40,000 nucleotides of DNA from Gilliamella mensalis (lineage in GTDB: Bacteria > Pseudomonadota > Gammaproteobacteria > Enterobacterales > Orbaceae). Shown piece after piece: positions 3,268-21,585 of the stretch. The first letter of the stretch is position 1. Each line of letters begins with the position of its first letter. The stretch lies in NCBI RefSeq assembly GCF_900103085.1, contig NZ_FMWR01000017.1, positions 88,040-128,039 on the forward strand. The letters run 5' to 3'. The position numbers and the translations under genes were made by a program. The notes beneath the pieces are model-generated. The model was given only the letters and a program-made list of their open reading frames with translations. It had not been told where the DNA came from and did not search any database.

Positions 3268-3295
3268 TTAGACATCTTAACATCTAGATGTCTAA
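3268..3295. promoter_or_regulatory. Palindromic element in the divergent Q-like / zinc-ribbon intergenic region
   Basis: TTAGACATC-N10-GATGTCTAA contains the perfect 12-bp palindrome ACATCTAGATGT (3280-3291). Confidence 0.3.
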
Positions 3296-3418
3296 AAAGA
3301 AATATTTGAGGTACTTAAAATTTTTGATGTTAATCACAAAACCATAATAAAATTATGGTACTAAGTTTAGATTGTTTATAGACTATTACATAAAAATATT
3401 AAATCTAAGGAGAATAAA

Positions 3419-3577
3419 ATGGTTGGCACAATAAAACTCCCCCATACATGCCCACACTGTAAAAAAACCACAGCAAAAACAGCAGTTGAATTAGAAGAAA
3501 AATTTGGCTACAGAACTTTGCCTTCTGGCGCAACTAATCAGAGTTGGTGTAGAATGTGCAGAAGCGATAATAAATAA
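3419..3577 (+). CDS. Small zinc-ribbon protein (52 aa), below the ORF-track cutoff
   Basis: MVGTIKLPHTCPHCKKTTAKTAVELEEKFGYRTLPSGATNQSWCRMCRSDNK carries CxxC...CxxC. The RBS AAGGAGA lies 7 nt upstream of the ATG. Confidence 0.5.
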   Translation: MVGTIKLPHTCPHCKKTTAKTAVELEEKFGYRTLPSGATNQSWCRMCRSDNK

Positions 3578-3705
3578 CAGCATTTTTATTTTAAATTAAT
3601 CCCTTTCGGGCTTAGTTTATTGGACATATGGCAATAACATATTACTGCGTTATGTTTAATTAATAAAATTGTATATAGTTGATTTTATTTATTAGTAATG
3701 TTAAC

Positions 3706-3734
3706 TTGATCAAAGAATATTTATAAAATATAAT
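3706..3734 (+). promoter_or_regulatory. Putative sigma-70 promoter (TTGATC-17 nt-TATAAT)
   Basis: -35 at 3706-3711 and -10 at 3729-3734, about 60 nt upstream of the 3794 start codon. Confidence 0.4.
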
Positions 3735-3793
3735 TTTGCGGCTAAAAATTATCGTTGTCTGTAATTACTCGAATTTTTTGTGAGGAGAGTAGA

Positions 3794-3991
3794 ATGAAAC
3801 ACACTAAATTATATACTATTGTAGCTACGGCTTTTGGTGGCTTATTAACATTTAGCCCTGTAACAGCGGTTTATTCTGATTTGCCGTCATATGAAAAAGA
3901 TGTATGCAATATGAGTTCTGATTGGACCAATGTTGGAAGTTATCTTTATAAAGGTATAGCCAGTGAACACCAAAAAGAAAAAACAAAATAA
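3794..3991 (+). CDS. Small secreted or membrane-anchored hypothetical protein (65 aa)
   Basis: The internal start MKHTKLYTIVATAFGGLLTFSPVTAV looks like a signal peptide and is preceded by GAGGAG. The track ORF 3755-3991 begins 13 codons earlier. Confidence 0.45.
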   Translation: MKHTKLYTIVATAFGGLLTFSPVTAVYSDLPSYEKDVCNMSSDWTNVGSYLYKGIASEHQKEKTK

Positions 3992-4489
3992 CCAACAAAA
4001 CCATAAAGACGTTGTAGCTAAGGAGTCCGAACAGATAAAATCGGATTCTTTGCTTGAACTAACTCCTGAGGTTTTGGAAAATATACCTTTATCTGAAAGG
4101 AAAAAAATACAACAAATCATGGTAAGTAAGACGCACGTCGGTCCACTTCCCTCATCAGAAGATTTGCAAGAATATGATAGAACATGTCCTGGGCTGCCAA
4201 TAGAATTATAGCGATGGCAGAAAAAGAACAGAACCATAGAATTGATGCAACCAAAAGAAGAGATAGCAGTGAGCATACATTAGCCTCACGAGGTCAAATA
4301 TTTGCTCTTATTTCTCTGGTTTTAATACTTCTATTTTGTGTCTTTTTAGCATTTATTGGTTCAACTAGCGGTGCGGTTACTGTTGCTTGTACTTTAGTGG
4401 TTAGTATTGTAGCTGTTTTTATTACTGGCCAAAAATCATCTAGCAGAAATACTAAAAATCAGCCTCAAGATAAAACCGACACAAAATAG
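3963..4489 (+). pseudogene. DUF2335-like membrane protein split by a 1-nt frameshift
   Basis: Track ORFs 3963-4211 (...HVGPLPSSEDLQEYDRTCPG) and 4184-4489 (AANRIIAMAEKEQNHRI... plus two TM helices) join into the DUF2335 pattern GPLPxxExLxxYxxxxPGAAxRIxxMAEKEQxHR if one G is added to the GGG run at 4191-4193. Confidence 0.6.
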
Positions 4490-4490
4490 A

Positions 4491-5510
4491 CTAAAAAATA
4501 ACACTCATCCCAAAAACACGATCCAAAAATTGAATTAACAATAATATCTGTGAACCGTGCTTTTGTTCCCACTCTTCGGCGTTCTTATGCAACTCGTTAT
4601 GATGAATTCTGCATAGTGGTAAAGTAAAGATATCATGAGCCTTTCCTCCCATCTTGCCTTGTCCATAACCGATTATATGGTGAGGATCATCAGCTTGTTT
4701 ACCACAGCATACACACGGTTGAGTTTTTACCCATTGGGTATATTTTTCACATTCCCAGCGTTTTAATTTTGGCCTTAACATGAATGATTCGGGTGACTCA
4801 TGATCTACCACTATTTTCTTAACTGGTTTAGATAATACTTGTAGATGTTGGTGTGTGTTATTTATTTCATTTTGTAATCTAGGTTTTGAGCGATCATCAC
4901 TAGCGACTAAATCAGATTCTTTGTAAACAGACTTTATCTCTTCAATTGGTCTATTATGCAGTAATCTGGTCATATTCTCAGGTATGAGTTCATGTAGTTG
5001 ATTGATTACAGCCCACCAAGCTAATTCTTGAATTGATAATTGATGGTTACTATCGTGTTTTAACTGGTTTATAACACATTCGATTAGAAATTGTTTTAAG
5101 TTGCGCTTTGCTAGCGTTTTCACATTATCATCAATAACTAAATCTTTATTGTGATGCCAGCACACACGAATAGCTGAATTGCCAACTTTTTCATTCACTA
5201 ATTCATGATGACAATATTCACCATCTTCTAACTGGCATTTATATCGTTGATTTAACCAATAATCAAAGTTATATAGATTTTTTAGTTTATCAACTACTGT
5301 GTCATGTAATATAAATGGATCGATATATTTATTATTTAATAACGGTTGTTCATCTTGAATAATACCCGATTTAATACCCGCGTGTTCCTCACCGCTTTGA
5401 GAAATAATAATACGATTACCTGTGCACATTTTTTTTAATAACTCTGCACCAGGTTTGAGAATGACTAGTCCAAGTTCTGGTTGGCAATATGGAGTAAGTA
5501 TTGCTTTCAT
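4491..5510 (-). CDS. Phage protein with a C-terminal Cys/His-rich DUF968-like (HNH-like) motif
   Basis: 339 aa. The C-terminus reads CVCCGKQADDPHHIIGYGQGKMGGKAHDIFTLPLCRIHHNELH. Its start overlaps the stop of the upstream kilA-N gene. Confidence 0.65.
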   Translation of the reverse strand: MKAILTPYCQPELGLVILKPGAELLKKMCTGNRIIISQSGEEHAGIKSGIIQDEQPLLNNKYIDPFILHDTVVDKLKNLYNFDYWLNQRYKCQLEDGEYCHHELVNEKVGNSAIRVCWHHNKDLVIDDNVKTLAKRNLKQFLIECVINQLKHDSNHQLSIQELAWWAVINQLHELIPENMTRLLHNRPIEEIKSVYKESDLVASDDRSKPRLQNEINNTHQHLQVLSKPVKKIVVDHESPESFMLRPKLKRWECEKYTQWVKTQPCVCCGKQADDPHHIIGYGQGKMGGKAHDIFTLPLCRIHHNELHKNAEEWEQKHGSQILLLIQFLDRVFGMSVIF

Positions 5511-6301
5511 TATGCCACTTTAGCGTTTTGCATTAACTTTAGTAATTCTTTAAATCTACTATCATAAAAATGAGGCTGTGTTTCTCTAGGGTTATTCGGT
5601 GGGGTGAGATTTTTACCATATAACAATCCATACGCAGTGATTGACCAAAACTCTTTTTCTTCACCTGTTTTAACACTCTTACGTTTATTGCGCTCAACAA
5701 TGCCTAAATCTTTCAATATCGCATAAGCCACGGTCGTTTTTAATGGAACTTCATATTTTTGTAATAAATGCGTTAATGAAAAAGATACACGGCTAGAACC
5801 ATCAACTGAGTCACTTGGTGCATCTATTGCATAATTAGGTAATAGACAGGGTACACCTGAATATTTTTGTAATTCTTGGTACCCTTTTAATTTGGCCGAA
5901 TTAGATAAATTTAAAGTTCTAGATGCAGATTCTAAAATCATCAATCCAATATTAACCTTATCCACTTCTGATGATTTTCTAGCTACAACAGAATCAAATG
6001 TACGAATAACCTTTAGATTAAATGTGGGACTAATCCACATTGCATAGGCATAAACAAGCTCTTTACAAGCGTATGTTCCTCGCTCAATACCACCATGCAC
6101 CACTTCCAAAGCAGGAATTCCTGCTTTGACAAATTCTTCAGTTATTTCTTGTATTAATTCTTGGGCTTGTTTATTTTCAAGCCACAAAGATGGGCGATTT
6201 TTATTTAGTTGTCCTGATGCTCGATGAAGATCGTTTAAGCAATACAACCCCTGCTTATTTTGACGAATAATAACATTTTCAATAGCAATTAATTGATTCA
6301 T
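5510..6301 (-). CDS. KilA-N domain DNA-binding protein (antirepressor-like)
   Basis: 263 aa. The N-terminus IRQNKQGLYCLNDLHRASGQLNKNRPSLWLENKQAQELIQEI...GTYACKELVYAYAMWISPTFNLKVIRTF matches the KilA-N pattern. Confidence 0.7.
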   Translation of the reverse strand: MNQLIAIENVIIRQNKQGLYCLNDLHRASGQLNKNRPSLWLENKQAQELIQEITEEFVKAGIPALEVVHGGIERGTYACKELVYAYAMWISPTFNLKVIRTFDSVVARKSSEVDKVNIGLMILESASRTLNLSNSAKLKGYQELQKYSGVPCLLPNYAIDAPSDSVDGSSRVSFSLTHLLQKYEVPLKTTVAYAILKDLGIVERNKRKSVKTGEEKEFWSITAYGLLYGKNLTPPNNPRETQPHFYDSRFKELLKLMQNAKVA

Positions 6302-6364
6302 TTTTTTAATACTCCACTTGTTTTGAATAAACGCTTAACATCTGCCTTGTTAAACACCTTTCGC

Positions 6365-6392
6365 ACTATGTCAGTCTGCACTCTGACATAGT
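6365..6392 (-). promoter_or_regulatory. Leader hairpin B with conserved loop AGUGCAGA (perfect 10-bp stem)
   Basis: The minus-strand transcript reads ACTATGTCAG-AGTGCAGA-CTGACATAGT, ending about 63 nt upstream of the kilA-N start codon. A possible promoter TTCACT-17-TATATT sits immediately upstream. Confidence 0.55.
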
Positions 6393-6538
6393 TCTAATAT
6401 ATCACTTTTTATAATATTAGTGAAAATTGCATAAATATAATTGTCTTTCTTATTAAAATGAAATTTTTAGTAAAATAGACTTGTATTATAAATATAATCA
6501 AGTTAACCTATACAGGCTTTCAACGCTAATTGAGACAA

Positions 6539-9250
6539 TTAGCAAAAAATCAGGCTTACCTTTTTAGGTGTTTCTGGGTCATGATATTGAATTATTACAT
6601 CGATGTTTTGTCTCGAAGAAAATTTATTTAATTGTTCTTTAGGAATGTTAGACTTATGAATAAGACCATCTATTGAAAATTTATCATTAGTATCAAGTGC
6701 AACAAAAATTCCAAAAGGAGCCTTGTTTTTTATGACTCCTTTCAATTTTGTGCCTATAGGGTATTTTTTACAAAAATCTTTCCAATCATCATCTGAATCC
6801 AACATTCTCTTAAATCGATCAATAGTTAATCTTGGCTTTTCCATTGAAATTAATTGAGGTAATAATTCAGAAGTAGAGAATACTTGATTATCAGTTAACA
6901 TCTTGAGTGAAATTTTTTCTATATACTCAACAAAGCGGCAAGCCGTCTTACAAACCTTAGCTAATTTATAGGTATTTTTGGGATTGATCATTACATTTTT
7001 AATATCGGTCACTAATTTTTTGTCTGTTATTAGAGTGTCTTCAGAAACGGTAGCTAAATATGTTATATCATTTTCTAATAACTCTAAATGGGCATAACCC
7101 GCTGGAGCTAACTTTACATTAGTGTTTAATGTTATATTTTCACACTGAAAATCTTCACTTACAATGCACATAGCATGTGCGAGATAAGTGATTTGATTAA
7201 GCACTAAACTTTCAGAAAAACCTATATTATCTAAATCAGCTATTATATCTTTAACTAAAAAATAACCTTTTCGGAAATTTTTCTTTGAATCTCGTTTCTT
7301 TATCATAAGCTTAAGCCATCTAAGTATAGCTAAACGAATTAAATAAATCGGTATATTTTCATCGGTTATTTGTGCATCTAGAAGATTTTTTATTTTTGAG
7401 TACTTACTGATATAATATCGATGATTACCTCTCATTAATGCTCGAATAGCAACATGTTCTGGCATAGTATAACTACTATTATTAAATTTTCTTATTTTAA
7501 CTATTTCTTCATTTGGAATATGCCCACTACTACAAAAATTCAAAAACATTTCTAATGCAATCCTAATATTTCCCCCTGAAAGCCCTGTTAATAATCTCCT
7601 AATTGAATTTTCATTATTTAATACAGAATTCAACATACATAATAAATATACAGAACCATCACTATTTGGATCAAACTTCACATGCATACTATTTTTTAGT
7701 ATAAAATCACTATTTTTAGAGTTGACTGAGTTAGAATCAAAAATCAACTCTAATGCCATTTGAACTCTTCTAGTTAATACAGTTTGGAACTTAGGTGCAT
7801 CTATCCTGAAGCTATATTGCTTTATTGCTGTATCTAAAGGCTTTTGGTCTTTATAATTATCATATGTTTCATCTCTTAACGGTAAAAAAATTATAGATTT
7901 TAAAGAATCTTTCGCCCAATTAGCTACTTCAAACATTAATAATTGAGAATCTTTGTCTTTTTTGTCACAATTATCGAACACTATAATCATAGATTTAGCT
8001 CGTTCATTGGCCAAATGCCTAATATAGCACTTTAAAGTTAAATCTAAATTATTTTGACTATTTTCAAGTAAATCAAACAAACTTTTCTTATATGACTCAG
8101 TGTCTTCACTTAAAATAGCACCTCTTCCCTTTTTAAAACTATTTACTTCTACTGAATAAAGTTTCATTAAAAAATCGAGGCTATCAAAATCATATTCTGA
8201 GCTAAATTGTTTCTGTAAATTTTCAATTATCTCTTTTTGAACCCATGTATATATTTTTTCTTTGTCTAAAGGGGCATTATTTAAATCCAATCTTACCCAA
8301 ATTAAAGAGTCCTGAATCTTTTCGGGTATAGTATCTGTATATTGTAGTAAATCAATAAATGTAGATTTACCAACGCCGACCTTTCCAATCAATAAAATAA
8401 TTTGAGAATAAGAATTTTTAGAAAGAACTTCAAATATTTCTACTGGTTTATTGGTTTGTTGAATTTGTTGAGATATTAACTCACTTGCTGAGTTCGACAT
8501 TCTAACTACTCGATCAATTTCATGTTGAGTTTTTTTATTGATATCTGTGTTAATATAACCTTTCGTAACTATATATTTTCTGTGATCTTCTGTAAAAGGA
8601 TCAAATATCCACCTATAAGTGTCACTAATATTTTCGCCTAGAGGATTCTTTTTAATTTCTTCTTCTTGAGTTGTTTTACCGCCAATTGTTTTTCTTGGTT
8701 TTTGTATATATGGTGGTTTGATTTTTTGACTGATTTTTTTAATGCAAGAATTTAATCCCATTTCACCTATTGTTTCAATCAGGATATTTAAATTTTGTGA
8801 TCCATAAATTAATTGATTAACTTTACACGTAATAATAGGAGTATCAGAACCTACTGCTCCAAACATTAAATCAATACCATTACTTGCTAATATGTAATTG
8901 ACTGGATTTAATTCTCTATCAAATTTATCATTAACTTCATGTGCATATAGTCTGGCTTCTCTAAATGCTTCATCTAAATTTGTATCAGAAGGTTTTTTTA
9001 CTTCAATTACAACAATCGGATATCCTCCATTAACTAATAGATAGTCCGGGTAATAAATTTTAGCTGAATTCCCCTTTCCAATAGAATATTTATTGATATT
9101 ATGTTTTGTTAAAATATTGCTATTAGATAGACCAAGACCATATGGCTTTGGCGCTTTTAGGAAATTTATCATAAATAACTGTTCTACGTCACTTTCTGTC
9201 GAATTCTTATCAAAATTCAAATTACTCATATTTAAATCAGCACCTGTCAT
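6539..9250 (-). CDS. 903-aa multidomain protein: N-terminal HsdR-N/Mrr-like PD-(D/E)xK nuclease motif, central P-loop NTPase (ORC/Cdc6-like AAA+), C-terminal S1/OB fold; candidate phage-defence cargo
   Basis: Motifs read from the translation. aa 66-85, YYPDYLLV..PIVVIEVKK, gives D69/E83/K85. aa 285-297, ILLIGKVGVGKST, is Walker A (nt 8360-8386). aa 421-429, MIIVFDNCD, is Walker B. aa 556-568, LSGGNIRIALEMF, is sensor-2-like. aa 829-900, YPIGTKLKGVIKNKAPFGIFVALD..DGLIHKSNI, is S1-like (nt 6542-6766). RBS is AGGTGA. A possible promoter TTACCA-17-TTAAAT lies at 9279-9307 on the minus strand. Confidence 0.85.
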   Translation of the reverse strand: MTGADLNMSNLNFDKNSTESDVEQLFMINFLKAPKPYGLGLSNSNILTKHNINKYSIGKGNSAKIYYPDYLLVNGGYPIVVIEVKKPSDTNLDEAFREARLYAHEVNDKFDRELNPVNYILASNGIDLMFGAVGSDTPIITCKVNQLIYGSQNLNILIETIGEMGLNSCIKKISQKIKPPYIQKPRKTIGGKTTQEEEIKKNPLGENISDTYRWIFDPFTEDHRKYIVTKGYINTDINKKTQHEIDRVVRMSNSASELISQQIQQTNKPVEIFEVLSKNSYSQIILLIGKVGVGKSTFIDLLQYTDTIPEKIQDSLIWVRLDLNNAPLDKEKIYTWVQKEIIENLQKQFSSEYDFDSLDFLMKLYSVEVNSFKKGRGAILSEDTESYKKSLFDLLENSQNNLDLTLKCYIRHLANERAKSMIIVFDNCDKKDKDSQLLMFEVANWAKDSLKSIIFLPLRDETYDNYKDQKPLDTAIKQYSFRIDAPKFQTVLTRRVQMALELIFDSNSVNSKNSDFILKNSMHVKFDPNSDGSVYLLCMLNSVLNNENSIRRLLTGLSGGNIRIALEMFLNFCSSGHIPNEEIVKIRKFNNSSYTMPEHVAIRALMRGNHRYYISKYSKIKNLLDAQITDENIPIYLIRLAILRWLKLMIKKRDSKKNFRKGYFLVKDIIADLDNIGFSESLVLNQITYLAHAMCIVSEDFQCENITLNTNVKLAPAGYAHLELLENDITYLATVSEDTLITDKKLVTDIKNVMINPKNTYKLAKVCKTACRFVEYIEKISLKMLTDNQVFSTSELLPQLISMEKPRLTIDRFKRMLDSDDDWKDFCKKYPIGTKLKGVIKNKAPFGIFVALDTNDKFSIDGLIHKSNIPKEQLNKFSSRQNIDVIIQYHDPETPKKVSLIFC

Positions 9251-9425
9251 CTTTTCACCTAATAAGAAACAATAGTTAATTTAACCATAATAAAATATTA
9301 TTGGTAATAGTACCATTTATTAGAAAACTAGACTAACTCCATTTGAGGGAAACATTGGTTAATACTATTTGTGCTATACTTGTACAACATATCATCAGTT
9401 TTTATAGGGTTATCAAGCATTGTTA

Positions 9426-9687
9426 TTAACCTTTTATTAACCTAATATTGATTAATACTTTACCATTTTTAATTGACTCACACCAGTCAGATTCAATTTG
9501 CTTGATCTGACTATCATCAACCCAAACCCCTGCTGTTGTAAGTGAATCGAACAAAGCCTTGAAATGCTGATTCCATATTTTTTCTTAAATATCCGCCCTT
9601 TCGGTCCTTTCTTAAATGAATATCTGGACACCCTTTTTTACGCATTGTTTTTTCAAACTCCATGCGTTCTAAATTAATATTTATCAT
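9426..9687 (-). pseudogene. Small phage gene (~87 codons) apparently frameshifted in a homopolymer run
   Basis: MININLERMEFEKTMRKKGCPDIHLRKDRKGGYLRK continues in another frame as IWNQHFKALFDSLTTAGVWVDDSQIKQIESDWCESIKNGKV. The switch coincides with the T6/A6 run at 9578-9583. Confidence 0.3.
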
Positions 9688-9732
9688 TATTTAACCTTAC
9701 ATTCATATACAACATCACCAACATAAAAGGCA

Positions 9733-10326
9733 TTAAGCTTTTGGCATAGCCTCCATTCTATTTACCAAAAACCGAGCAGCATTATTGATTTGCTCTGGCG
9801 ATAGCCGATCAATAATCATTTTGTTAATGCTTTGTTTAACTTTTGTTTGATGTTCAATTGTTAAATTTTTTGCATACTCAAATGAACCTCGGTTATTACC
9901 GTTAATTTTTTGCTTATTATCAGAACGGACAAACGAAATACGACCATTCACAATAAAATAAATTTCACTAGCTAATTTTCGTAACTCGTTAAACCACTCA
10001 ACCGACGTATCAACGGGTAACAACATCACGGTACCAACACCGCGATCTGCGGCTTCACGTGCTTTTTTAACCCACGGTAAGATTCGAGAATAAGGAGGAT
10101 TACAGAACGCAAAACCGCTTTTTAAGTGAGCCCAACCGTTCAGTAACGAATCATATGACTCAGTTAAATAATTCAAATGCAAATGATTGTGATCACTAGC
10201 AGCCACATCACAAACAAAACTAAAACGAGCATTTAAAAATTCATATAACTCAATCGGCGTTTGCCATAGATCTTTTATATCTGAATCAGTTTTGCTTTTT
10301 GAATGTTTATAATCAACTTTACCCAT
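9733..10326 (-). CDS. Phage DNA N-6-adenine methyltransferase (Dam-type, PF05869-like)
   Basis: 197 aa. WQTPIELYEFLNARFSFVCDVAAS...LLNGW...FCNPPYSRILPWVKKA...VMLLPVDTSVEWF...GRISF includes the NPPY catalytic motif. Confidence 0.85.
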   Translation of the reverse strand: MGKVDYKHSKSKTDSDIKDLWQTPIELYEFLNARFSFVCDVAASDHNHLHLNYLTESYDSLLNGWAHLKSGFAFCNPPYSRILPWVKKAREAADRGVGTVMLLPVDTSVEWFNELRKLASEIYFIVNGRISFVRSDNKQKINGNNRGSFEYAKNLTIEHQTKVKQSINKMIIDRLSPEQINNAARFLVNRMEAMPKA

Positions 10327-11038: not shown

Positions 11039-11886
11039 TGTAGAACCTCCTCACGTAACCAACCTGTACTATTCCAATCAATTTCAGACGATTTGTTTAC
11101 CGCTGTTTTACTATCAGATAACATTTGAGTCGTGAGGATCATCCATTTCTCAGAAAGGCTCGACGGTGACAAAATGTTTTTAAACCAAAATTCATGATGA
11201 TTAGCCCAATTAAAAACTTCTAATATTTCTCGTGTCCGCTTGTTGACTCGTTTTTTTAACAACCGAATCTCATTGCTCCATCGTGGCCAATTAGGTTCTT
11301 GGTAAGTTGGGTTAATCTCAAGCACTTTTTGATAAATATACTGGGCTACTTTCAAATCATCTTTTGAACCCCAGTATTTTCCGTTTGCTGAATAAATTTC
11401 AGCTTGAGGATGTTTTTCTAAAAATTGGGATAATTTATCAGCGTCGGAAATTTGGCTAAAATTTCCAGACCCTAATTTATTATTATTTATATTATTATTT
11501 ATATATGGATCGGGGTCAGATTCTGTCGGGTCAGTTTTTGACCGGTCAGAATGTGACGGGTCAGAATTTGGCTGGTGAGAATTAACAATTTCTAAAGCTA
11601 GTTTTTGTAGTTTTTGGACATTTATACAATACAAATTACTGTCATTCCGTTGACCATTTCGACGAGCTTTTACATATAACCAATCATCTTTCTTTAGGCT
11701 GCTAAGGGCTAACTTAACAGCACTTTTACTTGAGCCAGTTTGGCTGACAATTGTATCAATTGAGGGGAAACTACCCCCCTCATCATTGGAAAAATCAGCT
11801 AACCTTAGTAAAACTAATAATTTAGTTCCTTTCATTCCACTTGTAGCACAAACATCCCAAACATAGGAAGTTAACTTGGTACTCAT
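11035..11886 (-). CDS. Replication initiator (lambda O-like role; N-terminal winged-helix/HTH)
   Basis: 283 aa. The N-terminus SYVWDVCATSGMKGTKLLVLLRLADFSNDEGGSFPSIDTIVSQTGSSKSAVKLAL has an HTH_36-like pattern. The gene lies immediately upstream of the P-like gene and contains iterons plus an AT-rich tract. Confidence 0.7.
   Translation of the reverse strand: MSTKLTSYVWDVCATSGMKGTKLLVLLRLADFSNDEGGSFPSIDTIVSQTGSSKSAVKLALSSLKKDDWLYVKARRNGQRNDSNLYCINVQKLQKLALEIVNSHQPNSDPSHSDRSKTDPTESDPDPYINNNINNNKLGSGNFSQISDADKLSQFLEKHPQAEIYSANGKYWGSKDDLKVAQYIYQKVLEINPTYQEPNWPRWSNEIRLLKKRVNKRTREILEVFNWANHHEFWFKNILSPSSLSEKWMILTTQMLSDSKTAVNKSSEIDWNSTGWLREEVLQ
11473..11580. repeat. Putative replication origin inside the O-like gene: five iterons at exact 15-bp spacing plus an adjacent AT-rich tract
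   Basis: GGTCAG cores start at 11514, 11529, 11544 and 11559, with a GGTGAG variant at 11574. The AT tract TAATTTATTATTATTTATATTATTATTTATATAT lies at about 11473-11506. Confidence 0.6.
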
Positions 11887-12152
11887 AGATTAACCTCTTT
11901 GTTATTGTCGTTATTCAAACTTTGTTGTTTGATTAGAAAAGACCACAAAAATTCGACAAATTGGTGGCTGACAGGTGTCCAGATGTGATTTATCATGGCT
12001 TCATATTCAAAGCCTGATTGTGAAAACTTGCAACGCAATTGCGTTACAGTACAATTTAGTGTTAAACTATTCATGCGACTAATACTCCACAAGTGTTTTT
12101 TCGCAACCGACCGATAGCCTTCTGCAAAATTGCTATCGGTCACCCTTTCCAA
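11883..12152 (-). CDS. Hypothetical small phage protein (89 aa)
   Basis: ORF only. Its start overlaps the upstream gene's end and its stop overlaps the O-like gene's start (coupled arrangement). No recognisable motif. Confidence 0.4.
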   Translation of the reverse strand: MERVTDSNFAEGYRSVAKKHLWSISRMNSLTLNCTVTQLRCKFSQSGFEYEAMINHIWTPVSHQFVEFLWSFLIKQQSLNNDNNKEVNL

Positions 12153-12619
12153 AAATCATTTCAGTTATAACGATAATTTCACTCAATCTACATTGAATTG
12201 CATACGACGTAGCTTTTAATGACTTTTTCTCTTTTTTATCTAATATTCCATCTGCAGTAAATTCATTATGTTGCCGACAAAATTGACCCAGTTCTGCAAT
12301 AAGATTATTAAATTTATTTAATAACTCGTCGTTATCAAATTCATTAAATTCAGGCAACTTAACAAAAACACCGCCTCGATATTTTGCAATTGCCTCTGTA
12401 ATAACATTAGAATTGGCTTCTGCTTCCATTTCTAATATCATCCCCAGCGGTACCATTTGCCCATTTAATTGCCGCACACGATTGCGTAATGCATTTTCTG
12501 TACACTGACGTTGGATCTAGTCGTTTCGCCATTTCAGGGTACTTACCGTCAAATGATGTGATTAAATGATGAATTGCATCGGTTATCTCTTTCGGTGTTG
12601 GATAATTTCTATTGTCCAC
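12133..12619 (-). pseudogene. CII-like (CP76-type) regulatory protein, frameshifted
   Basis: Track ORFs 12407-12619 and 12133-12477 overlap in different frames. A third frame across about 12480-12517 reads IQRQCTENALRNRVRQLNGQMVPLGMILEMEAEA and links them. The position after cro matches cII. Confidence 0.5.
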
Positions 12620-12645
12620 ATTTACCTCTATTCTTGGTGGTTGTT

Positions 12646-12852
12646 TTAATTATGGTTTTCTTTATTTTGATAAAGGGTCTCATCAAATGCTAATTCCGAA
12701 TTAGTTCTAAATGCGGCTTCAATAGCGCGATCCTTTGGAATTAACTTCTGAGGTCTTTTTTGCCACTGATAAAAAGCTTCCGGGCTAATATTAAAAAACT
12801 CGGCCACTTTTTTGGGTGTTTTAAAATATGAAATTAATTGATCTGTAGTCAT
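12646..12852 (-). CDS. Cro-like / YdaS-family HTH regulator
   Basis: 68 aa, KKVAEFFNISPEAFYQWQKRPQKLIPKDRAIEAAFRTNSEL. It is divergent from the cI-like repressor across a 101-bp operator region. Confidence 0.7.
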   Translation of the reverse strand: MTTDQLISYFKTPKKVAEFFNISPEAFYQWQKRPQKLIPKDRAIEAAFRTNSELAFDETLYQNKENHN

Positions 12853-12867
12853 AACTACTCCTTATTA

Positions 12868-12883
12868 TCTAAGTTAAGTTAGA
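12868..12883. promoter_or_regulatory. Operator-like palindrome 1 (TCTAAG-N4-GTTAGA) in the cI/cro intergenic region
   Basis: It sits within the larger palindrome TTATCTAAGTTAAGTTAGATAA at 12865-12886. It shares the half-sites CTAA/TTAG at 6-nt spacing with 12917-12932 and 13765-13780. Confidence 0.5.
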
Positions 12884-12916
12884 TAACACTATCGAATTTA
12901 AACTAGATCAATAAAA

Positions 12917-12932
12917 ACTAAGATAGATTAGA
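12917..12932. promoter_or_regulatory. Operator-like palindrome 2 (ACTAAG-N4-ATTAGA)
   Basis: Same half-site geometry as 12868-12883, located 22 nt upstream of the cI start codon. Confidence 0.4.
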
Positions 12933-12953
12933 AAAAAATTTTTAGGTTTTATT

Positions 12954-13580
12954 ATGGAAACAGTTGGACAAAGAATAAAGAAATTACGAAAAGAGAATAA
13001 AAAAACTCAGATTGAGGTAGGTAAATTTTGCAATGTTTCCGATGTTACGGTTGGATTCTGGGAAAGAGATGTAAATGAACCAAAAGGCAGAGCATTGCAA
13101 TTATTAGCTAAGTTGTTTAATGTAGACATAAATTATATTTTATACGGATCATTAAATAATCTGTCACCAGTAAAATCATCAACTGTACAAACAGTTCCTT
13201 TACTATCGACAGTTCAAGCTGGGAATTTTACAGAACACATGATAAACAATAATGAAGTAGACGAATGGATCAATACTACATTTTCGATATCATCAGAATC
13301 ATTTGCGCTTAAAGTTGTCGGGGACTCAATGTTAAACCCTTTGGGTAACCCAAGCATACCAGAGGATTCAATTATAATAGTAGATACTTTGCAGTTTGCA
13401 GACAATGGAAAAATAGTTGTAGCAAGAATTGATGGAACGGATGAAGTAACAGTAAAAAAATTAGTAATAGATGGACCAAATAGATATTTGATGCCGCTAA
13501 ATCCACAATATAAAAGTATCCCAATTAATAATAATTGTGTAATTATCGGTGTCGTCAAAGGCGTTCAAATTGAATTATAA
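12954..13580 (+). CDS. cI-like prophage repressor (XRE HTH plus S24 LexA-type autopeptidase)
   Basis: 208 aa. The N-terminus QRIKKLRKENKKTQIEVGKFCNVSDVTVGFWE is the HTH. The C-terminus VQAGNF...ALKVVGDSMLNP...VARIDGTDEVTVKKL carries the Ser/Lys dyad. Confidence 0.9.
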   Translation: METVGQRIKKLRKENKKTQIEVGKFCNVSDVTVGFWERDVNEPKGRALQLLAKLFNVDINYILYGSLNNLSPVKSSTVQTVPLLSTVQAGNFTEHMINNNEVDEWINTTFSISSESFALKVVGDSMLNPLGNPSIPEDSIIIVDTLQFADNGKIVVARIDGTDEVTVKKLVIDGPNRYLMPLNPQYKSIPINNNCVIIGVVKGVQIEL

Positions 13581-14172: not shown

Positions 14173-14739
14173 TTATTCGATAAATTCATTATAAATTTCG
14201 GTAATAATGCCTGCATAACTTGGATGTATATGGTAGATCATGGATAACAAGTGACGTCCTCTTAAATCACCTCCCAGCGGAATAATAATATTTTTGCTTT
14301 GCAATGATTTAACATACTGATCAGAGCCATCTAAGCTGAGCGAATTTGTGCGCTGGTGTACAAACATGAATAAGATTTTTAATTCATTTTCATCTAATTG
14401 ATGAATTATTTTCTTGATATGTTGATCTCTGTTTTTTATTTTTATTTTTTGGTTCTTGTTTTTTAAAATTTTATTAAAAACCAAAACAACAGTATCAACA
14501 ACCAAGTAACTGATGATAAAGAGCACAATATAAAACACTGTCTTTCCAGAAACAAATGGAACCTCTATATTTTCAATATATGTTATTACTGCCTTTGGAG
14601 TAAAAACACAACCACAAATAAACAAAAGAACGGTATACATAATTCGCCTTATTGATACTTTCCCTGTTACAAAAGAAAAAAGATGAGTAACCCATTCCGG
14701 CATGATTGAATATCCAAATTTACTGTTGTGGTAATTCAA
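14173..14739 (-). CDS. SieB-like superinfection exclusion membrane protein
   Basis: 188 aa. The N-terminal half has 2-3 hydrophobic helices (YTVLLFICGCVFTPKAVI, VFYIVLFIISYLVVDTVVLVF). The C-terminus QLDENELKILFMFVHQRTNSLSLDGSDQYVKSLQSKNIII resembles the SieB family as I recall it. Size and location beside the immunity region match lambda/P22 sieB. Confidence 0.45.
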   Translation of the reverse strand: MNYHNSKFGYSIMPEWVTHLFSFVTGKVSIRRIMYTVLLFICGCVFTPKAVITYIENIEVPFVSGKTVFYIVLFIISYLVVDTVVLVFNKILKNKNQKIKIKNRDQHIKKIIHQLDENELKILFMFVHQRTNSLSLDGSDQYVKSLQSKNIIIPLGGDLRGRHLLSMIYHIHPSYAGIITEIYNEFIE

Positions 14740-16654: not shown

Positions 16655-16912
16655 ATGATACGTTATTTACCAATTTCTAAATATTGTAGTGAATATGGCG
16701 ACACGGTAGGTGCTGTTGATAAAAGGCTAAAACGAGGCATTTGGGCTTTCGGAGTACATGTTTTCCGTGTTGAAGGTATAAAAGAACGTCAGGTAGATAT
16801 AGTAGCGGTTGATGAATGGAAAGGAAAGGAAAGGAAAAGCAAAAATGTCGCGTGGTGTAACAATTCGAAAACACGCAAACGTTCAAACATTAATTATCAC
16901 ATTTACATTTAA
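16655..16912 (+). CDS. xis: Excisionase-like protein
   Basis: Small basic protein immediately 5' of int and overlapping it. The ATG at 16655 lies 9 nt after AAGGAG; the track ORF starts at the GTG at 16646. There is a loose resemblance to lambda-type Xis. Confidence 0.5.
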   Translation: MIRYLPISKYCSEYGDTVGAVDKRLKRGIWAFGVHVFRVEGIKERQVDIVAVDEWKGKERKSKNVAWCNNSKTRKRSNINYHIYI

Positions 16913-17990
16913 AGGTGTTTGTTGTCGTGAACCGCTACGTGGACTACCCGTTACCCCATCAAACATAAAATATGCAGAACGACAAAGAGGTGAAATATTA
17001 AATAGTATTGAACGAGGAACTTTTAATTATGCTGATTTCTTTCCAAAGTCAAGTAAGCTGAAAATATTTGGCTATTCAAGTAAAGGATTAAAAGTTAAGA
17101 GCTATTTAGATAGTTATTTATCTTTATGTGAAAAACGTAAGTTATCTCCATCAACGATCAACGGCTATCAGAAGTGCATTAATGCACTTCATGATCTTCA
17201 TGATATTTGCATAACCGAATTAACACCAGGAATTATAAAAAATTGGGTACAAGAACAAACAACATCAATTAAGACTAAACGTAATAACTTATCTTACCTT
17301 AAGTCATCTCTTGATGATGCTATTATTGATGGGATAATTTCTATTAATCCCGTTCAGTCTGTATCAGTATCTAAATATCATGACAAAAGCACAGAGCAAG
17401 ATAAAAGTGATTACGTTGTTGATCCGTTCTCGCCAGATGAGGTTAACACAATATTACAATGTTGTAGCAATGAACAATGGGAAAATTTATTTAGGTTCGC
17501 TTTAGCAACAGGCATGAGGTCAAGCGAGCTTTGCGCATTAAAATGGAAAAATATCGACTTTATTAAAAACAAAGTACATGTAAATTCTGCTCGAGTAGTT
17601 GGAGTTGAAAAAGGAACAAAAACAAAAGCAGGAACTCGTATTATTGATCTGGATAACAATGCATTAATAGCATTAGCTAAACAAAAGAAATTTAGTTTTT
17701 TACATAATGAGTATGTTTTTTTGGATCCAAAAACAAATAAACAATGGGAGGGGGCTGATGCAATACGAAAAAAAGCTTGGGTACCAGTGTTAAAACGATC
17801 TGGAGTACGCTACCGCAACCCGTATCAAACTAGACACACGTTTGCAACATATCATCTAAGCAACGGCGTTAATCTATTTTGGTTAGCAGAGCAAATGGGG
17901 CATAAAGGTCCAGAAATGTTATTCCGGCATTACGGTTCGTACCTTGAATCATACGACGGTAATACATCAATCAAAAAAGCATCAAAATAA
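16845..17990 (+). CDS. int: Tyrosine recombinase / phage integrase
   Basis: The N-terminal arm-binding pattern is GVTIRKHANVQTLIITFTFKGVCCREPLRGLPVTPSNIKYAERQRGEILNSIERGTFNY. The catalytic region reads GMRSSELCALKW...TRHTFAT...GHKGPEMLFRHYGSY (R...HxxR...Y). It ends 73 nt before attR. The track ORF starts 12 codons earlier, at 16809. Confidence 0.9.
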   Translation: MSRGVTIRKHANVQTLIITFTFKGVCCREPLRGLPVTPSNIKYAERQRGEILNSIERGTFNYADFFPKSSKLKIFGYSSKGLKVKSYLDSYLSLCEKRKLSPSTINGYQKCINALHDLHDICITELTPGIIKNWVQEQTTSIKTKRNNLSYLKSSLDDAIIDGIISINPVQSVSVSKYHDKSTEQDKSDYVVDPFSPDEVNTILQCCSNEQWENLFRFALATGMRSSELCALKWKNIDFIKNKVHVNSARVVGVEKGTKTKAGTRIIDLDNNALIALAKQKKFSFLHNEYVFLDPKTNKQWEGADAIRKKAWVPVLKRSGVRYRNPYQTRHTFATYHLSNGVNLFWLAEQMGHKGPEMLFRHYGSYLESYDGNTSIKKASK

Positions 17991-18063: not shown

Positions 18064-18096
18064 GACGCGGGTTCAACTCCCGCCAGCTCCACCACT
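18064..18096 (+). repeat. attR core of the prophage (also the proximal att of the next island): 33-bp copy of the ssrA 3' end
   Basis: Identical to 1469-1501. Confidence 0.9.
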
Positions 18097-20383: not shown

Positions 20384-21580
20384 ATGATATTTACTAGATT
20401 GAAAATCGATAATCTATTCAGTTTCAAAAATGCAGAACTTGAACTAAGTTTTAAACGTAAACCTACTTTTCCGACTATAGATGGTGAACATATTTTAGGA
20501 AGAGAAAATTATTATTTTAAAAAAGTTTGCATTTTATCTGGAACTAATTCAAGCGGTAAAACCTCTGTTGGAAAAATTCTTTGCGATATACAAAATTATA
20601 TTTTGCAAAATCATCCATTACAGTCTGGAGATAAAATTTACAATAAAAGTAAATTCGGTGTTATTGAAGTTGATTATGCTACTACAACGCCTAAGCCCTA
20701 TGCACACAGGCTTAAAATTGAAATCACTGAAAATAATGTAATAAATAATATTCTTTATGTCAATTCACCTATAGGTAAAAACGATAGCTGTTTTCAGCTA
20801 AGAAAAAAAATTGACAAAATAATTTTAAATAAAGAAGCACCTAGAGGAGCTTGTTTTTTTAAAAGAGATGGCTCAGAAGTCATTAATTTCCCCTTTGAAT
20901 TTATTAAAAAACATGGTGTTAATGGTTGTTGGTATTATTTATTCTCTGAAAATGACGAGACTAGTATTCCTATTAGAGATACTTTTGATTTAAAAATTAT
21001 GAAAAGTATTTTGTCTTCTTTTGATTATACAATTGAAAAAGTAGTAGAAATAGCAATAAATGGCTCAGGTAAAAAGAAAGAGAAAAAAGAGGTAACTGGA
21101 CACAGAATATATTTTAAAAATGGAGATGCGGTTGATATTAATGACAAAGGTGATATAACAAATAATAAAAATCGATTATCTAAAGGGACTTATGATGCAA
21201 TAAAAATAGCCTCATTAATAGGGAAAATTGGACAGGAAAAAGAGTTTTGTGATAATGATGTTACGTGTGCAACTTACTATTTAGATGAGAAAATGTCGTA
21301 CTCTCATTCTGAACTTGAAGTTTCAATTATTAATTTAATTATTAGTAAAATGGGAAGAAATTGTCAATTTTTTTATACGACTCACAATTATGAAGTTTTA
21401 GACTTAAATTTGCCAATTCATTCATTTACTTTTTTAGTAAAAGATTCTGGTAATTCTTTCTTTATTGAAGCTCAGGAAAAATACAAAAAAAATGATAGAA
21501 ATTTAATTAATCACATTAAAAACAATTTTTTCAAGACTCTCCCATCTACTAATGAACTAGAAAGATTAATAGAGGATTAG
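20384..21580 (+). CDS. ABC/SMC-type ATPase (AAA_21/AAA_15-like), defence-associated class
   Basis: 398 aa. The N-terminus FTRLKIDNLFSFKNAELELSF is followed by Walker A LSGTNSSGKTS (nt 20540-20566). LSKGTYDAIKIA is signature-like, ATYYLDE is Walker B, and FFYTTHN is the H-loop. Confidence 0.8.
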   Translation: MIFTRLKIDNLFSFKNAELELSFKRKPTFPTIDGEHILGRENYYFKKVCILSGTNSSGKTSVGKILCDIQNYILQNHPLQSGDKIYNKSKFGVIEVDYATTTPKPYAHRLKIEITENNVINNILYVNSPIGKNDSCFQLRKKIDKIILNKEAPRGACFFKRDGSEVINFPFEFIKKHGVNGCWYYLFSENDETSIPIRDTFDLKIMKSILSSFDYTIEKVVEIAINGSGKKKEKKEVTGHRIYFKNGDAVDINDKGDITNNKNRLSKGTYDAIKIASLIGKIGQEKEFCDNDVTCATYYLDEKMSYSHSELEVSIINLIISKMGRNCQFFYTTHNYEVLDLNLPIHSFTFLVKDSGNSFFIEAQEKYKKNDRNLINHIKNNFFKTLPSTNELERLIED

Positions 21581-21585
21581 TTTCT

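Follow-up and report, generated by a model that had tools for sequence, protein, structure and literature searches.

A mobile-element gene joining a restriction-type nuclease, an ORC/Cdc6-type ATPase and an S1 domain is a candidate single-gene anti-phage system

The systems closest to the protein described here are the Avs (AVAST) proteins, which are bacterial NLR-like STAND proteins, the ORC1/Cdc6 initiators, HsdR, the RADAR ATPase RdrA, and the CoCoNuT and McrBC-type type IV systems that carry a cold-shock domain (CSD). RNA targeting by the CoCoNuT systems with a CSD has been predicted from their domains (PMC10542128). MADS is encoded by a mad1-8 operon in which mad6, mad7, and mad8 are mandatory (bioRxiv 10.1101/2023.03.30.534895), and experiments have validated the gpA-Q slot of P2 as a hotspot of anti-phage genes (PMC9122126).

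The gene under study is a complete coding sequence with an ATG start at 6539-9250 of the window (the whole 40,000-nucleotide stretch that was analysed), as given by the ORF list, and it lies on the minus strand with all its domains. It encodes 903 aa, and a 100%-identical protein record exists from Gilliamella mensalis. An AlphaFold model of the full protein reached a pLDDT of 86.6 and a pTM of 0.80. Residues 1-180 (8711-9250) were delimited by Pfam HSDR_N, conservation, and the model as a restriction-type PD-(D/E)xK nuclease, with a helix containing E19, D21, and E23, the residue D69, and the element E83-x-K85. HSDR_N matches aa 66-135 with an E-value of 3.5e-10, above the curated cut-off, and 50 of the 51 family members have it. 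D69 is invariant among 51 diverse relatives, and E83 and K85 are conserved in at least 90% of them. The best PDB neighbours of a separate N-terminal model were the nuclease domains of DrdV, HsdR, BsaXI, and BpuSI, and the family profile matched 3h1t_A as an HsdR-type nuclease (E 0.009). Together, the Pfam match, the conservation, and the structural neighbours uphold the HsdR-N/Mrr-type signature at D69, E83, and K85 that had been read in a preliminary description of this DNA. From sequence and model, the N terminus is predicted to be the same kind of nuclease that type I, IIG, and IIL restriction enzymes use to cut DNA. A helical linker follows (aa 181-265, 8456-8710; model secondary structure and pLDDT), which is partly of low confidence, with pLDDT below 50 at aa 239-253.

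The AAA+ P-loop core (aa 266-510, 7721-8455) was delimited by invariant residues, weak profiles, and Foldseek. Walker A is GKVGVGKST at aa 289-297, with G289, G292, G294, and K295 invariant, and Walker B is IIVFDNCD at aa 422-429, with D426, N427, and D429 invariant, so that the key residues confirm both motifs as previously read. Walker B has the form D-N-x-D without the usual D-E glutamate, which would be typical of a slow switch ATPase and not of a motor. The lid domain (aa 511-610, 7421-7720; model and conservation) contains a sensor-2-like helix, GGNIRIALEMF, which we take to be the Cdc6/Orc1 'GDxRxAl' sensor-2 motif. Its residue R563, in LSGGNIRIALEMF, is invariant among the 51 diverse relatives. 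R459, at the end of strand 4, is at a plausible sensor-1 position and R495 is a candidate arginine finger; both are conserved in the family, their roles being assigned from positions in the model alone. The winged-helix domain (aa 611-715, 7106-7420) comprises helices at 638-653, 666-674, and 680-692 and a hairpin at 696-714 in the model secondary structure.

A Foldseek search with the model matched ORC1/Cdc6, CED-4, Dark, and RdrA. The top PDB matches were ORC1, Cdc6, and ORC4 chains at probability 1.00, the best being 7mca_A, 2v1u_A, and 1fnn_A (E about 1e-5), and their alignments of about 540-600 columns take in the winged helix. An AAA+ core, a helical lid, and a C-terminal winged helix are thus present by both Foldseek and model secondary structure, and the centre of the protein is best described as an ORC/Cdc6-type AAA+ module with a sensor-2 arginine and a winged helix. 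The earlier likening of the lid helix to the ORC/Cdc6 sensor-2 arginine helix accords with the invariant R563 and with these matches. Pfam AAA_22, AAA_16, and NB-ARC match the query weakly; AAA_22 is found in 33 and AAA_16 in 32 of the 51 members. NB-ARC scores 18.3 bits for the query against a cut-off of 23.5, and NB-ARC and NACHT each occur in 2 of 51 members at E<=0.01. Assignment to the STAND NTPase class is not supported, as these two profiles stay under their cut-offs and ORC/Cdc6 structures fit better.

A helical region (aa 716-830, 6761-7105; model and conservation), in which H721 and Y731 are invariant, ends in a 'DDDW' linker before the S1 domain. The S1 OB-fold (aa 831-903, 6542-6760) belongs to the class that binds single-stranded nucleic acid. 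It was recognized by Pfam S1 (E 3.2e-5, 24.6 bits against a cut-off of 22), by NCBIfam bS1 models (up to E 1e-9), by the family profile against the PDB (bS1 at E 1e-40), and by Foldseek (bS1, rmsd 2.0), and in the model aa 835-902 form a barrel of five strands. The S1/OB pattern proposed for the C terminus is confirmed by the Pfam and bS1 matches and by the barrel, and all three assignments (nuclease, NTPase, and S1) hold in the profile and structure searches.

Most family members carry S1. In the relative P0139 an RRM_1 domain is found instead (E 2.7e-27), and in the plasmid protein L014:5356-8229 a CSD (E 1.8e-11), with an unchanged nuclease and AAA layout. A subfamily of about 810 aa has no S1 and ends about 60-75 aa past aa 760. 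The S1 domain is thus a nucleic-acid-binding module that can be exchanged, and it need not be the only sensor. As judged from the domain sequences, the presence of S1, RRM, or CSD at the same position suggests that single-stranded nucleic acid, probably RNA, is the ligand of the C-terminal end. Because one subfamily has no RNA-binding domain, the core mechanism cannot depend on RNA binding.

Like the Avs proteins, the protein combines in one polypeptide a nuclease effector, a P-loop switch with a winged helix, and a C-terminal ligand-binding part, and it shares their P2 and P4 hotspots (PMC9122126). Unlike them, it keeps an AAA+ sensor-2-type arginine, and its winged helix is followed not by a TPR or other repeat sensor but by about 110 residues in helices and an S1 barrel of 70 aa. 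No repeat families were found in a Pfam search of the query and 51 members, and the PADLOC Avs models matched neither the query nor its relatives. Because a repeat-type sensor is missing, the protein is not an Avs. The fold of its ATPase does resemble the STAND proteins CED-4 and Dark, but more weakly than ORC/Cdc6. Of the Avs/STAND likeness suggested in the preliminary description, the N-terminal nuclease effector stands, whereas a STAND-class switch is not supported.

With the ORC1/Cdc6 initiators the protein shares Walker A and B and the sensor-2-like 'G-x-N-I-R-x-A-L' helix. However, sequence identity is only 10-12% and the global TM-score is low, Walker B is D-N-x-D and not D-E, and the protein is fused to a nuclease and S1 and occurs as sporadic mobile-element cargo. 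HsdR has the same N-terminal HSDR_N PD-(D/E)xK nuclease, but the present protein has no SF2 helicase/translocase motor: ResIII, DEAD, and Helicase_C matched none of the 51 members, and no hsdM or hsdS adjoins the gene in the window or the surveyed loci. The NCBI name for the family, 'type I restriction endonuclease', is therefore misleading. RdrA of RADAR is likewise a large AAA+/STAND-like defence ATPase, solved in an RNA-loading state, with fold matches to 8hra_C (E 3e-4) and 8fnu_A, but here the effector is a fused nuclease; no neighbouring RdrB deaminase was found in the window or the surveyed loci, and PADLOC RdrA gave no match. The CoCoNuT and McrBC-type type IV systems with a CSD also join a nuclease, an AAA+ NTPase, and an OB-fold RNA-binding domain. 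They belong to another AAA+ clade, McrB being a GTPase whereas the module here is ORC-like, and CoCoNuT is multi-gene with coiled coils and HEPN, in contrast to a single gene without those domains. MADS was considered and rejected: the query itself has no match, only weak mad8/mad3 matches occur among its relatives (7-8 of 51, best E 5.5e-6), and the gene stands alone.

The host element is a defective lambdoid prophage integrated at ssrA, with the gene in its nin region. The tmRNA lies at 1135-1499, and the 33-bp 3' end of ssrA occurs as exact repeats on the plus strand, attL at 1469-1501 and attR at 18064-18096, the latter just past the integrase gene (16809-17990). The presence of this repeat at both ends confirms the ssrA prophage proposed earlier, which spans 16.6 kb between the att repeats and is without late genes. 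Near the gene are lambda O/P replication genes and, as also in contig L047, Dam-type methylases. A SieB-like gene is found in the same prophage, and an AbiL-like pair just beyond attR. In a sister prophage, on contig L050, the KilA-N and DUF968 proteins are identical to those of the window and the DNA upstream of kilA is unrelated. Since the sister prophage is without the gene, the gene is variable cargo, a status suggested before and supported both by this difference and by homologs in accessory slots of mobile elements.

The family comprises 198 clusters at 50% identity (E<=1e-30), with members in Alpha-, Beta-, and Gammaproteobacteria, Desulfobulbia, and Acidobacteria. The gene nearly always occurs singly in the variable slots of mobile elements, and no partner gene is conserved. 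A homolog sits in the P2 gpA-portal (old/tin) hotspot in 109 of 5,426 complete E. coli genomes (2%), between gpA and the portal gene of a Yersinia P2-like prophage, and in the same slot at about 9-10 of 25 IMG/VR and genome loci. Homologs are also carried by a second P2-like prophage, by a P4-like satellite (near a D5-type primase), by an IS1595 composite, by plasmids (adjoining Rep, ParA, and RelE), and by an integrative element (adjoining RelE and an integrase); at further loci they adjoin HigBA and AbiEii. Dam-type methylases are also near homologs in E. coli P2 prophages and at 4 of 25 other loci. No homolog was found in 50,697 sequenced phage genomes. Of the 127 genes immediately next to homologs in viral contigs, most belong to the phage core and few encode known defence proteins, chiefly four orphan Dam-type methylases and singletons. 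The survey thus places homologs in mobile-element slots and not in housekeeping contexts, as had been expected of a defence gene, but with few known defence genes beside them, so that the case for defence rests on hotspot position and not on defence-island association.

In PADLOC-DB 2.0, the one defence catalogue compared, no model matches the 903-aa protein, and its relatives give weak domain-level matches only, e.g. to mad8, mad3, and DndF. The family is nevertheless on record. Rousset et al. 2022 list 'S1/HSDR_N (+ KAP_NTPase)' as a P2-hotspot arrangement in Table S5A, where the cargo is the E. coli homolog WP_001678413 (WP_001678413.1), adjoining a KAP_NTPase gene; neither this accession nor its domain labels are in the tables of tested and validated systems, Tables S2 and S3 (PMC9122126). 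The profile phrog_14719 ('unknown function') matches the protein with E 2.5e-116, aa 173-833 aligning to positions 188-830 of 833, and stops before the S1 domain. As catalogue entries only, phrog_14719 and 'S1/HSDR_N' are the same protein family. The architecture is therefore new to the named systems of PADLOC, as first supposed, but the family had not gone unnoticed. A literature search found no published phage-protection experiment on any family member.

Since the family stands alone in accessory hotspots of phages, satellites, and plasmids, it is a good and credible candidate for a new single-gene anti-phage system. At a probability of about one half, the gene is a stand-alone NTP-gated nuclease carried as mobile-element cargo and most likely protecting its lysogen or element against other phages or mobile DNA. 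In the mechanism envisaged, the protein would be inactive in the resting cell. On infection, the C-terminal and winged-helix region would engage nucleic acid of the phage, be it transcripts or single-stranded intermediates of replication, and this would lead to ATP-dependent assembly of the AAA+ modules. Assembly could bring the nuclease domains together to cut DNA, halting phage replication and possibly killing the host (abortive infection). The nuclease substrate, the oligomeric state, and the trigger are what we infer for this protein. Several points count against this reading: no PADLOC model matches, few neighbours are known defence proteins, the sequenced phage genomes searched contain no homolog, one subfamily is devoid of an RNA-binding domain, the promoter scan detected no promoter of the gene itself, so that expression in the lysogen is only presumed, and an S1 domain has no obvious means of distinguishing phage RNA from host RNA. 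A bolder form, in which the family would be a new class of single-protein immune receptor that senses phage ssRNA or ssDNA through an exchangeable S1/RRM/cold-shock head and switches on a DNA nuclease by ORC/Cdc6-like ATP-dependent assembly, is considered doubtful.

The nearest structures of the nuclease domain are all DNA restriction nucleases, and an ORC/Cdc6 fold combined with a winged helix is an arrangement that binds DNA. These findings suit an ATP-dependent, type IV/McrBC-like enzyme acting directly on invading DNA, in which the winged helix and AAA+ ring would recognize or load on foreign DNA (e.g. modified or unmodified), the nuclease would cut it, and the S1, RRM, or CSD would be an auxiliary ssDNA/RNA tether and not a sensor. 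The S1-less subfamily, which retains nuclease, ATPase, and winged helix, and the Dam-type methylases near the gene at the loci given above also fit. However, the methylase association is not conserved, being absent at the IS, plasmid, satellite, and P. aeruginosa loci, profiles of the query and 51 members detected no known modification-reading domain, and the independent recruitment of three RNA-type domains to one position argues for their importance; such direct restriction is judged unlikely. The same RRM and CSD variants, together with an S1 domain closest to those of ribosomal protein bS1, would suit an abortive-infection nuclease directed at RNA, with S1 leading an ATP-gated PD-(D/E)xK domain to mRNA or ribosome-associated RNA, which it would cleave to stop translation by the logic of PrrC, RloC, or the predicted CoCoNuT. 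RNA is the predicted target of CoCoNuT with a CSD (PMC10542128), and S1-like and CSD domains have been noted among those that bind RNA in NTP-dependent conflict systems (Kaur et al. 2020; PMC7159879). Yet the HSDR_N-type nuclease and its structural neighbours point to DNA-cutting enzymes, no HEPN, PIN, or other dedicated RNase fold was found in Pfam profiles of the query and 51 members, and an S1-less subfamily exists, which leaves RNA cleavage very unlikely.

The gene might also serve the mobile element and not host immunity, as an accessory in replication, partition, or maintenance, as an addiction-type module, or as a weapon against rival satellites or plasmids. Replication genes are often adjacent (lambda O/P here, P2 gpA, plasmid Rep and ParA, the satellite D5-type primase), replication initiators share the central fold, and toxin-antitoxin neighbours occur. 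But only a minority of similar elements have the gene (2% of E. coli genomes, and a sister prophage is without it), so that it is dispensable for replication. The occupied slots are known variable-cargo sites (PMC9122126), and a conserved restriction-type nuclease with an RNA-binding domain would not be expected of a replication accessory. Service to the element is accordingly regarded as highly improbable.

If the gene is a defence gene, it adds a widespread single-gene system whose domain logic is outside PADLOC-DB 2.0, shows an ORC/Cdc6-type AAA+ module, and not a classical STAND, gating an effector, explains one recurrent cargo of the P2 old/tin hotspot, and corrects the database name. The swapping of S1, RRM, and CSD at one position offers a handle on guide-free nucleic-acid sensing of infection in bacteria. 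Should the receptor form of the defence reading be true, the protein would be the guide-free analogue of immune systems triggered by RNA, e.g. type III CRISPR and RIG-I-like receptors.

The immediate flanks agree in part with the isolated ORF first described. A Shine-Dalgarno sequence, AGGTGA, was read at 9255-9260 (minus strand), four bases 5' of the ATG, as reported, and the flanking gaps measure 237 bp (6302-6538) and 482 bp (9251-9732), close to the sizes given. The larger gap is, however, not simply non-coding: by comparison with L047 and a weak Pfam RusA match, it contains on the minus strand what is left of a small ORF, together with the C-terminal third of a rusA gene. This rusA remnant is 42 aa long (E 0.0076), an intact 130-aa RusA is at the corresponding position in contig L047 (98.6% identical), and 361 bp of the rusA stretch (L047 2364-2724) are missing from the window. 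The promoter thought plausible was not borne out, as a promoter scan found no site upstream of the start, and the region has 21 promoter-like matches against 23.5 expected from shuffles. No terminator was found in the scanned region. Between the gene and kilA-N, an inverted repeat forms a hairpin with a 10-bp perfect stem (6360-6397, minus strand; RNA fold -15.3 kcal/mol, z -3.1), which has no following U-tract and is not called a terminator. The AT-richness of the gene noted at the outset is real but modest, with a GC of 0.285 (GC3 0.19) against 0.335 for the window and a standard deviation of 0.029 among same-size windows, 7.5% of which are as low as the gene.

The open reading frame at 6539-9250 on the minus strand starts with ATG and encodes 903 aa, exactly as given in the preliminary description, which had read an HsdR-N-type nuclease, Walker A and B motifs, a sensor-2 helix, and a C-terminal S1 domain from the translation. 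Pfam searches confirmed both ends of this assignment, with HSDR_N at aa 66-135 (E 3.5e-10) and S1 at aa 830-891 (E 3.2e-5), each exceeding the Pfam cut-off. The P-loop region gave matches to AAA_22, NB-ARC, and AAA_16, all of them sub-threshold. Among 51 diverse relatives, HSDR_N was detected in 50, AAA_22 in 33, AAA_16 in 32, and S1 in 14. The residues D69, T462, R495, R563, H721, and Y731 are invariant in this set, as are G289, G292, G294, and K295 of Walker A and D426, N427, and D429 of Walker B, which bears out the reading of the two Walker motifs. E19, D21, E23, E83, K85, and R459 are conserved in at least 90% of the relatives.

An AlphaFold model calculated from a 57-sequence alignment was confident (pLDDT 86.6, pTM 0.80). 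Its top PDB matches in Foldseek were ORC1, Cdc6, and ORC4 (7mca_A, 2v1u_A, and 1fnn_A; E about 1e-5 over 540-600 columns), followed by CED-4, Dark, RADAR RdrA (8hra_C), and HslU. The proposed sensor-2 helix at aa 556-568 is consistent with the ORC/Cdc6 fold matches and with the invariant R563. The C terminus of the model matched the S1 domains of bS1 with an rmsd of 2.0. When the family profile was compared with PDB sequences, it matched bS1 (E 1e-40) and, weakly, the N terminus of Vibrio vulnificus HsdR (E 0.009), with no match for the central module. A search of BFVD returned generic AAA+ and S1 matches only and no full-length analogue. When aa 1-260 were modelled on their own (pLDDT 83), the top neighbours were DrdV, HsdR (3h1t and EcoR124I), BsaXI, and BpuSI, all of them DNA restriction nucleases, with weak E-values (about 1e-2) and probabilities of 0.95-1.0.

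The resulting layout consists of a restriction-type PD-(D/E)xK nuclease (aa 1-180), a helical linker (aa 181-265), an AAA+ core (aa 266-510), a lid with the 'GGNIRIALEMF' helix (aa 511-610), a winged helix (aa 611-715), a helical region (aa 716-830), and S1 (aa 831-903). The nuclease is conserved and apparently active, and the AAA+ part is a conserved ATP-binding switch with a winged helix. Its Walker B motif reads D-N-x-D and is devoid of the usual catalytic glutamate. In ORC and STAND proteins a motif of this kind goes with a slow switch and not with a motor, and it suggests that the ATPase of the 903-aa protein likewise acts as a slow switch.

An exhaustive search yielded 1,609 clusters at 50% identity with E<=1e-3 and 198 with E<=1e-30, and a 90%-identity database gave at least 995 matches among 8,000 candidates scored. 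Among the 120 matches listed, nearly all have 870-925 aa and HSDR_N and most have S1; these originate from Alpha-, Beta-, and Gammaproteobacteria and from an Acidobacteriaceae genome. A plasmid search contributed a further homolog, in Desulfocapsa (Desulfobulbia). The databases include a 100% identical protein of Gilliamella mensalis, followed by an Ignatzschineria relative with 65% identity.

The C terminus differs between members. A distant subfamily of about 800-830 aa with 22-30% identity aligns to aa 17-760 only and has a short helical tail where S1 would be. In the 990-aa relative P0139 an RRM replaces S1 (Pfam RRM_1, E 2.7e-27), and a 957-aa Rhodobacteraceae plasmid protein (L014:5356-8229) has the same nuclease and AAA_22/AAA_16 layout as the 903-aa protein but has a cold-shock domain (E 1.8e-11) at its end. 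That one position is taken by three unrelated domains, each of a kind that binds nucleic acid in single-stranded form, is the strongest clue to the role of the C terminus, which is predicted to be an exchangeable module for single-stranded nucleic acid. The relatives with an RRM or a cold-shock domain in place of S1 (P0139; L014:5356-8229; L051) share the nuclease and AAA+ body and form a natural domain-swap series. For NTP-dependent conflict systems in general, Kaur et al. 2020 (PMC7159879) name S1-like and cold-shock OB folds as some of the domains that bind RNA.

Every genomic context of the family is a mobile or variable one, and nearly all members are lone genes. In Yersinia the gene separates replication gene A from the portal gene of a P2-like prophage, and the same slot is occupied in E. 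coli, in 109 of 5,426 complete genomes, where a KAP_NTPase gene follows. In 25 IMG/VR and genome loci, Phage_GPA was present within three genes on either side in 9 and the portal protein in 10. This gpA-Q slot of P2 is the old/tin locus. It has been shown experimentally to be a hotspot of anti-phage systems (Rousset et al., PMC9122126). Other members reside beside gpD of a P2-like prophage in Ignatzschineria, in a P4-like satellite of Enterobacter that encodes integrase, AlpA, and D5-type primase, in a segment between IS1595 copies on metagenome contigs, beside HigBA in Pseudomonas aeruginosa, and on plasmids beside Rep and ParA or beside a RelE/ParE pair. An integrative mobilisable element carries an S1-less member with RelE and an integrase as neighbours, and the RRM member P0139 is found beside AbiEii. 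A survey of homolog neighbourhoods had been proposed as a check on the defence-cargo idea, and mobile-element accessory contexts were found throughout the surveyed loci. The family is thus distributed sporadically as a lone gene on mobile elements and in validated defence hotspots. Searches of 50,697 phage genomes (INPHARED) at both the DNA and the protein level gave no match, so the family is known from prophages and IMG/VR contigs and not from sequenced isolates.

A conserved partner gene was also sought. In a Pfam analysis of 127 neighbours only phage core genes recur, and the idea of a fixed partner was rejected. In two E. coli P2-like prophages (L045 and L046, both at 11232-13076) the homolog is followed by a gene for a 614-aa KAP-family P-loop NTPase (WP_023147874.1); apart from the P2 loci of E. 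coli, this pairing was seen at the similar locus L027 only. A restriction-modification-like pairing with the adjacent Dam methylase was discarded as well, the association not being conserved across loci. The same applies to an association with defence islands: PADLOC on the 127 nearest neighbours in viral loci found few known defence proteins, namely four Dam-type orphan methylases and singletons.

PADLOC-DB 2.0 contains no model for the 903-aa protein and gave no matches, and the 51 relatives showed weak domain-level matches only (mad8, mad3, and DndF), with generic ATPase or nuclease domains in common. MADS itself is an eight-gene operon (bioRxiv 10.1101/2023.03.30.534895). Membership in HsdR, Avs, RADAR, MADS, and McrBC was tested and rejected in each case, as a defining feature failed. 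In PHROGs the family corresponds to phrog_14719 (E 2.5e-116), annotated 'unknown function', the profile of which stops short of S1. The database name 'type I restriction endonuclease' given to the family is misleading because there is neither a helicase motor nor HsdM or HsdS. Its E. coli P2 arrangement is included in Table S5A of Rousset et al. (PMC9122126), and the tables of tested and validated systems in that study contain neither the accessions nor the HSDR_N or KAP labels of this arrangement. No characterisation emerged from literature searches by domain name, accession, and product name or from the papers on DefensePredictor and metagenomic selection. As far as found in the literature, the family is catalogued, yet neither tested nor named. 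In its working order the protein would resemble single-polypeptide effector, NTPase switch, and sensor proteins; it differs from these in that the switch is an ORC/Cdc6-like AAA+ module and the variable end is an RNA-binding domain rather than a repeat sensor.

This leads to the question of how such a protein may act. We favour, with a probability of about one half, an ATP-gated nuclease that is triggered by nucleic acid and serves in defence. The protein would be inactive at rest. During infection the C-terminal and winged-helix region would engage a nucleic acid ligand, which could be phage transcripts or single-stranded intermediates of replication, and ATP-dependent assembly would follow; R495 appears to occupy the expected place of an inter-subunit arginine finger. 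Assembly would juxtapose the nuclease domains and permit DNA cutting, resulting in phage-specific damage or abortive infection. Most of the weight lies on an ATP-gated nuclease for defence or competition; RNA as its trigger carries far less.

Both the S1-less subfamily and the DNA-type nuclease favour a restriction-like enzyme that acts directly and depends on ATP, with S1 as no more than an auxiliary part, a reading that we regard as rather unlikely. That the nuclease instead cleaves RNA in an abortive-infection response is improbable, and a function in replication, maintenance, or inter-element competition is slightly more doubtful still. The family is well supported as a candidate and easy to test: one homolog occupies the classic P2 hotspot of E. 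coli, and the C-terminal variants provide a natural domain-swap series. Its function is inferred, and many candidates of this general type exist.

The element that carries the gene was described as an ssrA prophage. The tmRNA gene is at 1135-1499, and an Rfam scan of the window found tmRNA and tRNA-Asn only. The 33 bp at the 3' end of ssrA (1469-1501) recur without a mismatch at 18064-18096, as a direct repeat that forms attL and attR, and an integrase gene (16809-17990) lies just inside the second repeat, at the element end far from ssrA; repeat and integrase establish a real prophage of 16.6 kb. Between the att copies is a lambdoid early region with integrase, exonuclease-like, SieB-like, cI (S24 repressor), cII, O, P, Dam, the 903-aa gene, KilA-N, DUF968/HNH, and a Q-like antiterminator. 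Since no lysis or structural genes were found between Q and ssrA, the element is a defective prophage, or possibly satellite-like. The 903-aa gene occupies a nin-region position between P and Q. The sister prophage contig L050 encodes identical KilA-N and DUF968, and its similarity to the window ends at 6319 with unrelated DNA upstream. The gene is variable cargo, in agreement with the preliminary description.

Of the gaps said to isolate the gene, the 237 bp to kilA-N (5510-6301, minus strand) stand, and the 482 bp to the Dam methylase gene (9733-10326) are a decayed gene region and not plain non-coding DNA. The metagenomic contig L047, 98.6% identical over window 4505-9578, has the order Dam, C5 methylase, 57-aa ORF, intact 130-aa RusA, 903-aa gene, KilA-N, DUF968, and Q. 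Comparison with L047 identifies 9426-9687 (minus strand) as a frameshifted and deleted remnant of the small ORF and rusA, with 361 bp of rusA (L047 2364-2724) missing from the window; the surviving 42-aa RusA fragment weakly matches the C terminus of Pfam RusA (E 0.0076). L047 also carries an extra 521-aa C5 DNA methyltransferase gene (665-2230) between Dam and rusA that is absent from the window. The AT-richness noted for the gene is real but modest: its GC is 0.285 and GC3 0.19 compared with a window mean of 0.335, and 7.5% of same-size windows (sd 0.029) are equally low.

The gene has its own ribosome-binding site, AGGTGA, four bases ahead of the ATG. The plausible promoter did not hold up, as no sigma-70-like site was reported upstream of the start codon and regional sites numbered 21 versus 23.5 in shuffles. 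A scan of the region found no intrinsic terminator, and an own promoter and terminator were both rejected. A hairpin with a 10-bp perfect stem and no U-tract (6360-6397; -15.3 kcal/mol, z -3.1) lies between the stop codon and kilA-N, in the DNA past the 6319 breakpoint, which is not shared with L050, and hence travels with the cargo gene.

About 1.2 kb between DUF968 and the Q-like gene (3290-4504), with ORFs at 3887-4276 (minus strand) and 4184-4489 (plus strand) that match no family, are missing in the sister contigs L047-L049, where about 70 bp separate the flanks; this is a second variable slot of the same prophage. The KilA-N protein partially matches the PADLOC candidate PDC-S22 over 41 residues only (E 3.1e-7), probably through a common domain. 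Adjoining the cI repressor gene is the SieB-like ORF (14173-14739, minus strand), which resembles a superinfection-exclusion protein (phrog_6399, E 3.6e-7). Between attR and tRNA-Asn, where the GC content of the window is lowest (0.26-0.27), a gene for an AbiLi-like ATPase (PADLOC AbiLi, E 4.6e-27; Pfam AAA_21) is followed after 5 bp by a 178-aa ORF without a family match. This pair (20384-22122, plus strand) lies just beyond the prophage and is probably a two-gene defence locus of the AbiL type.
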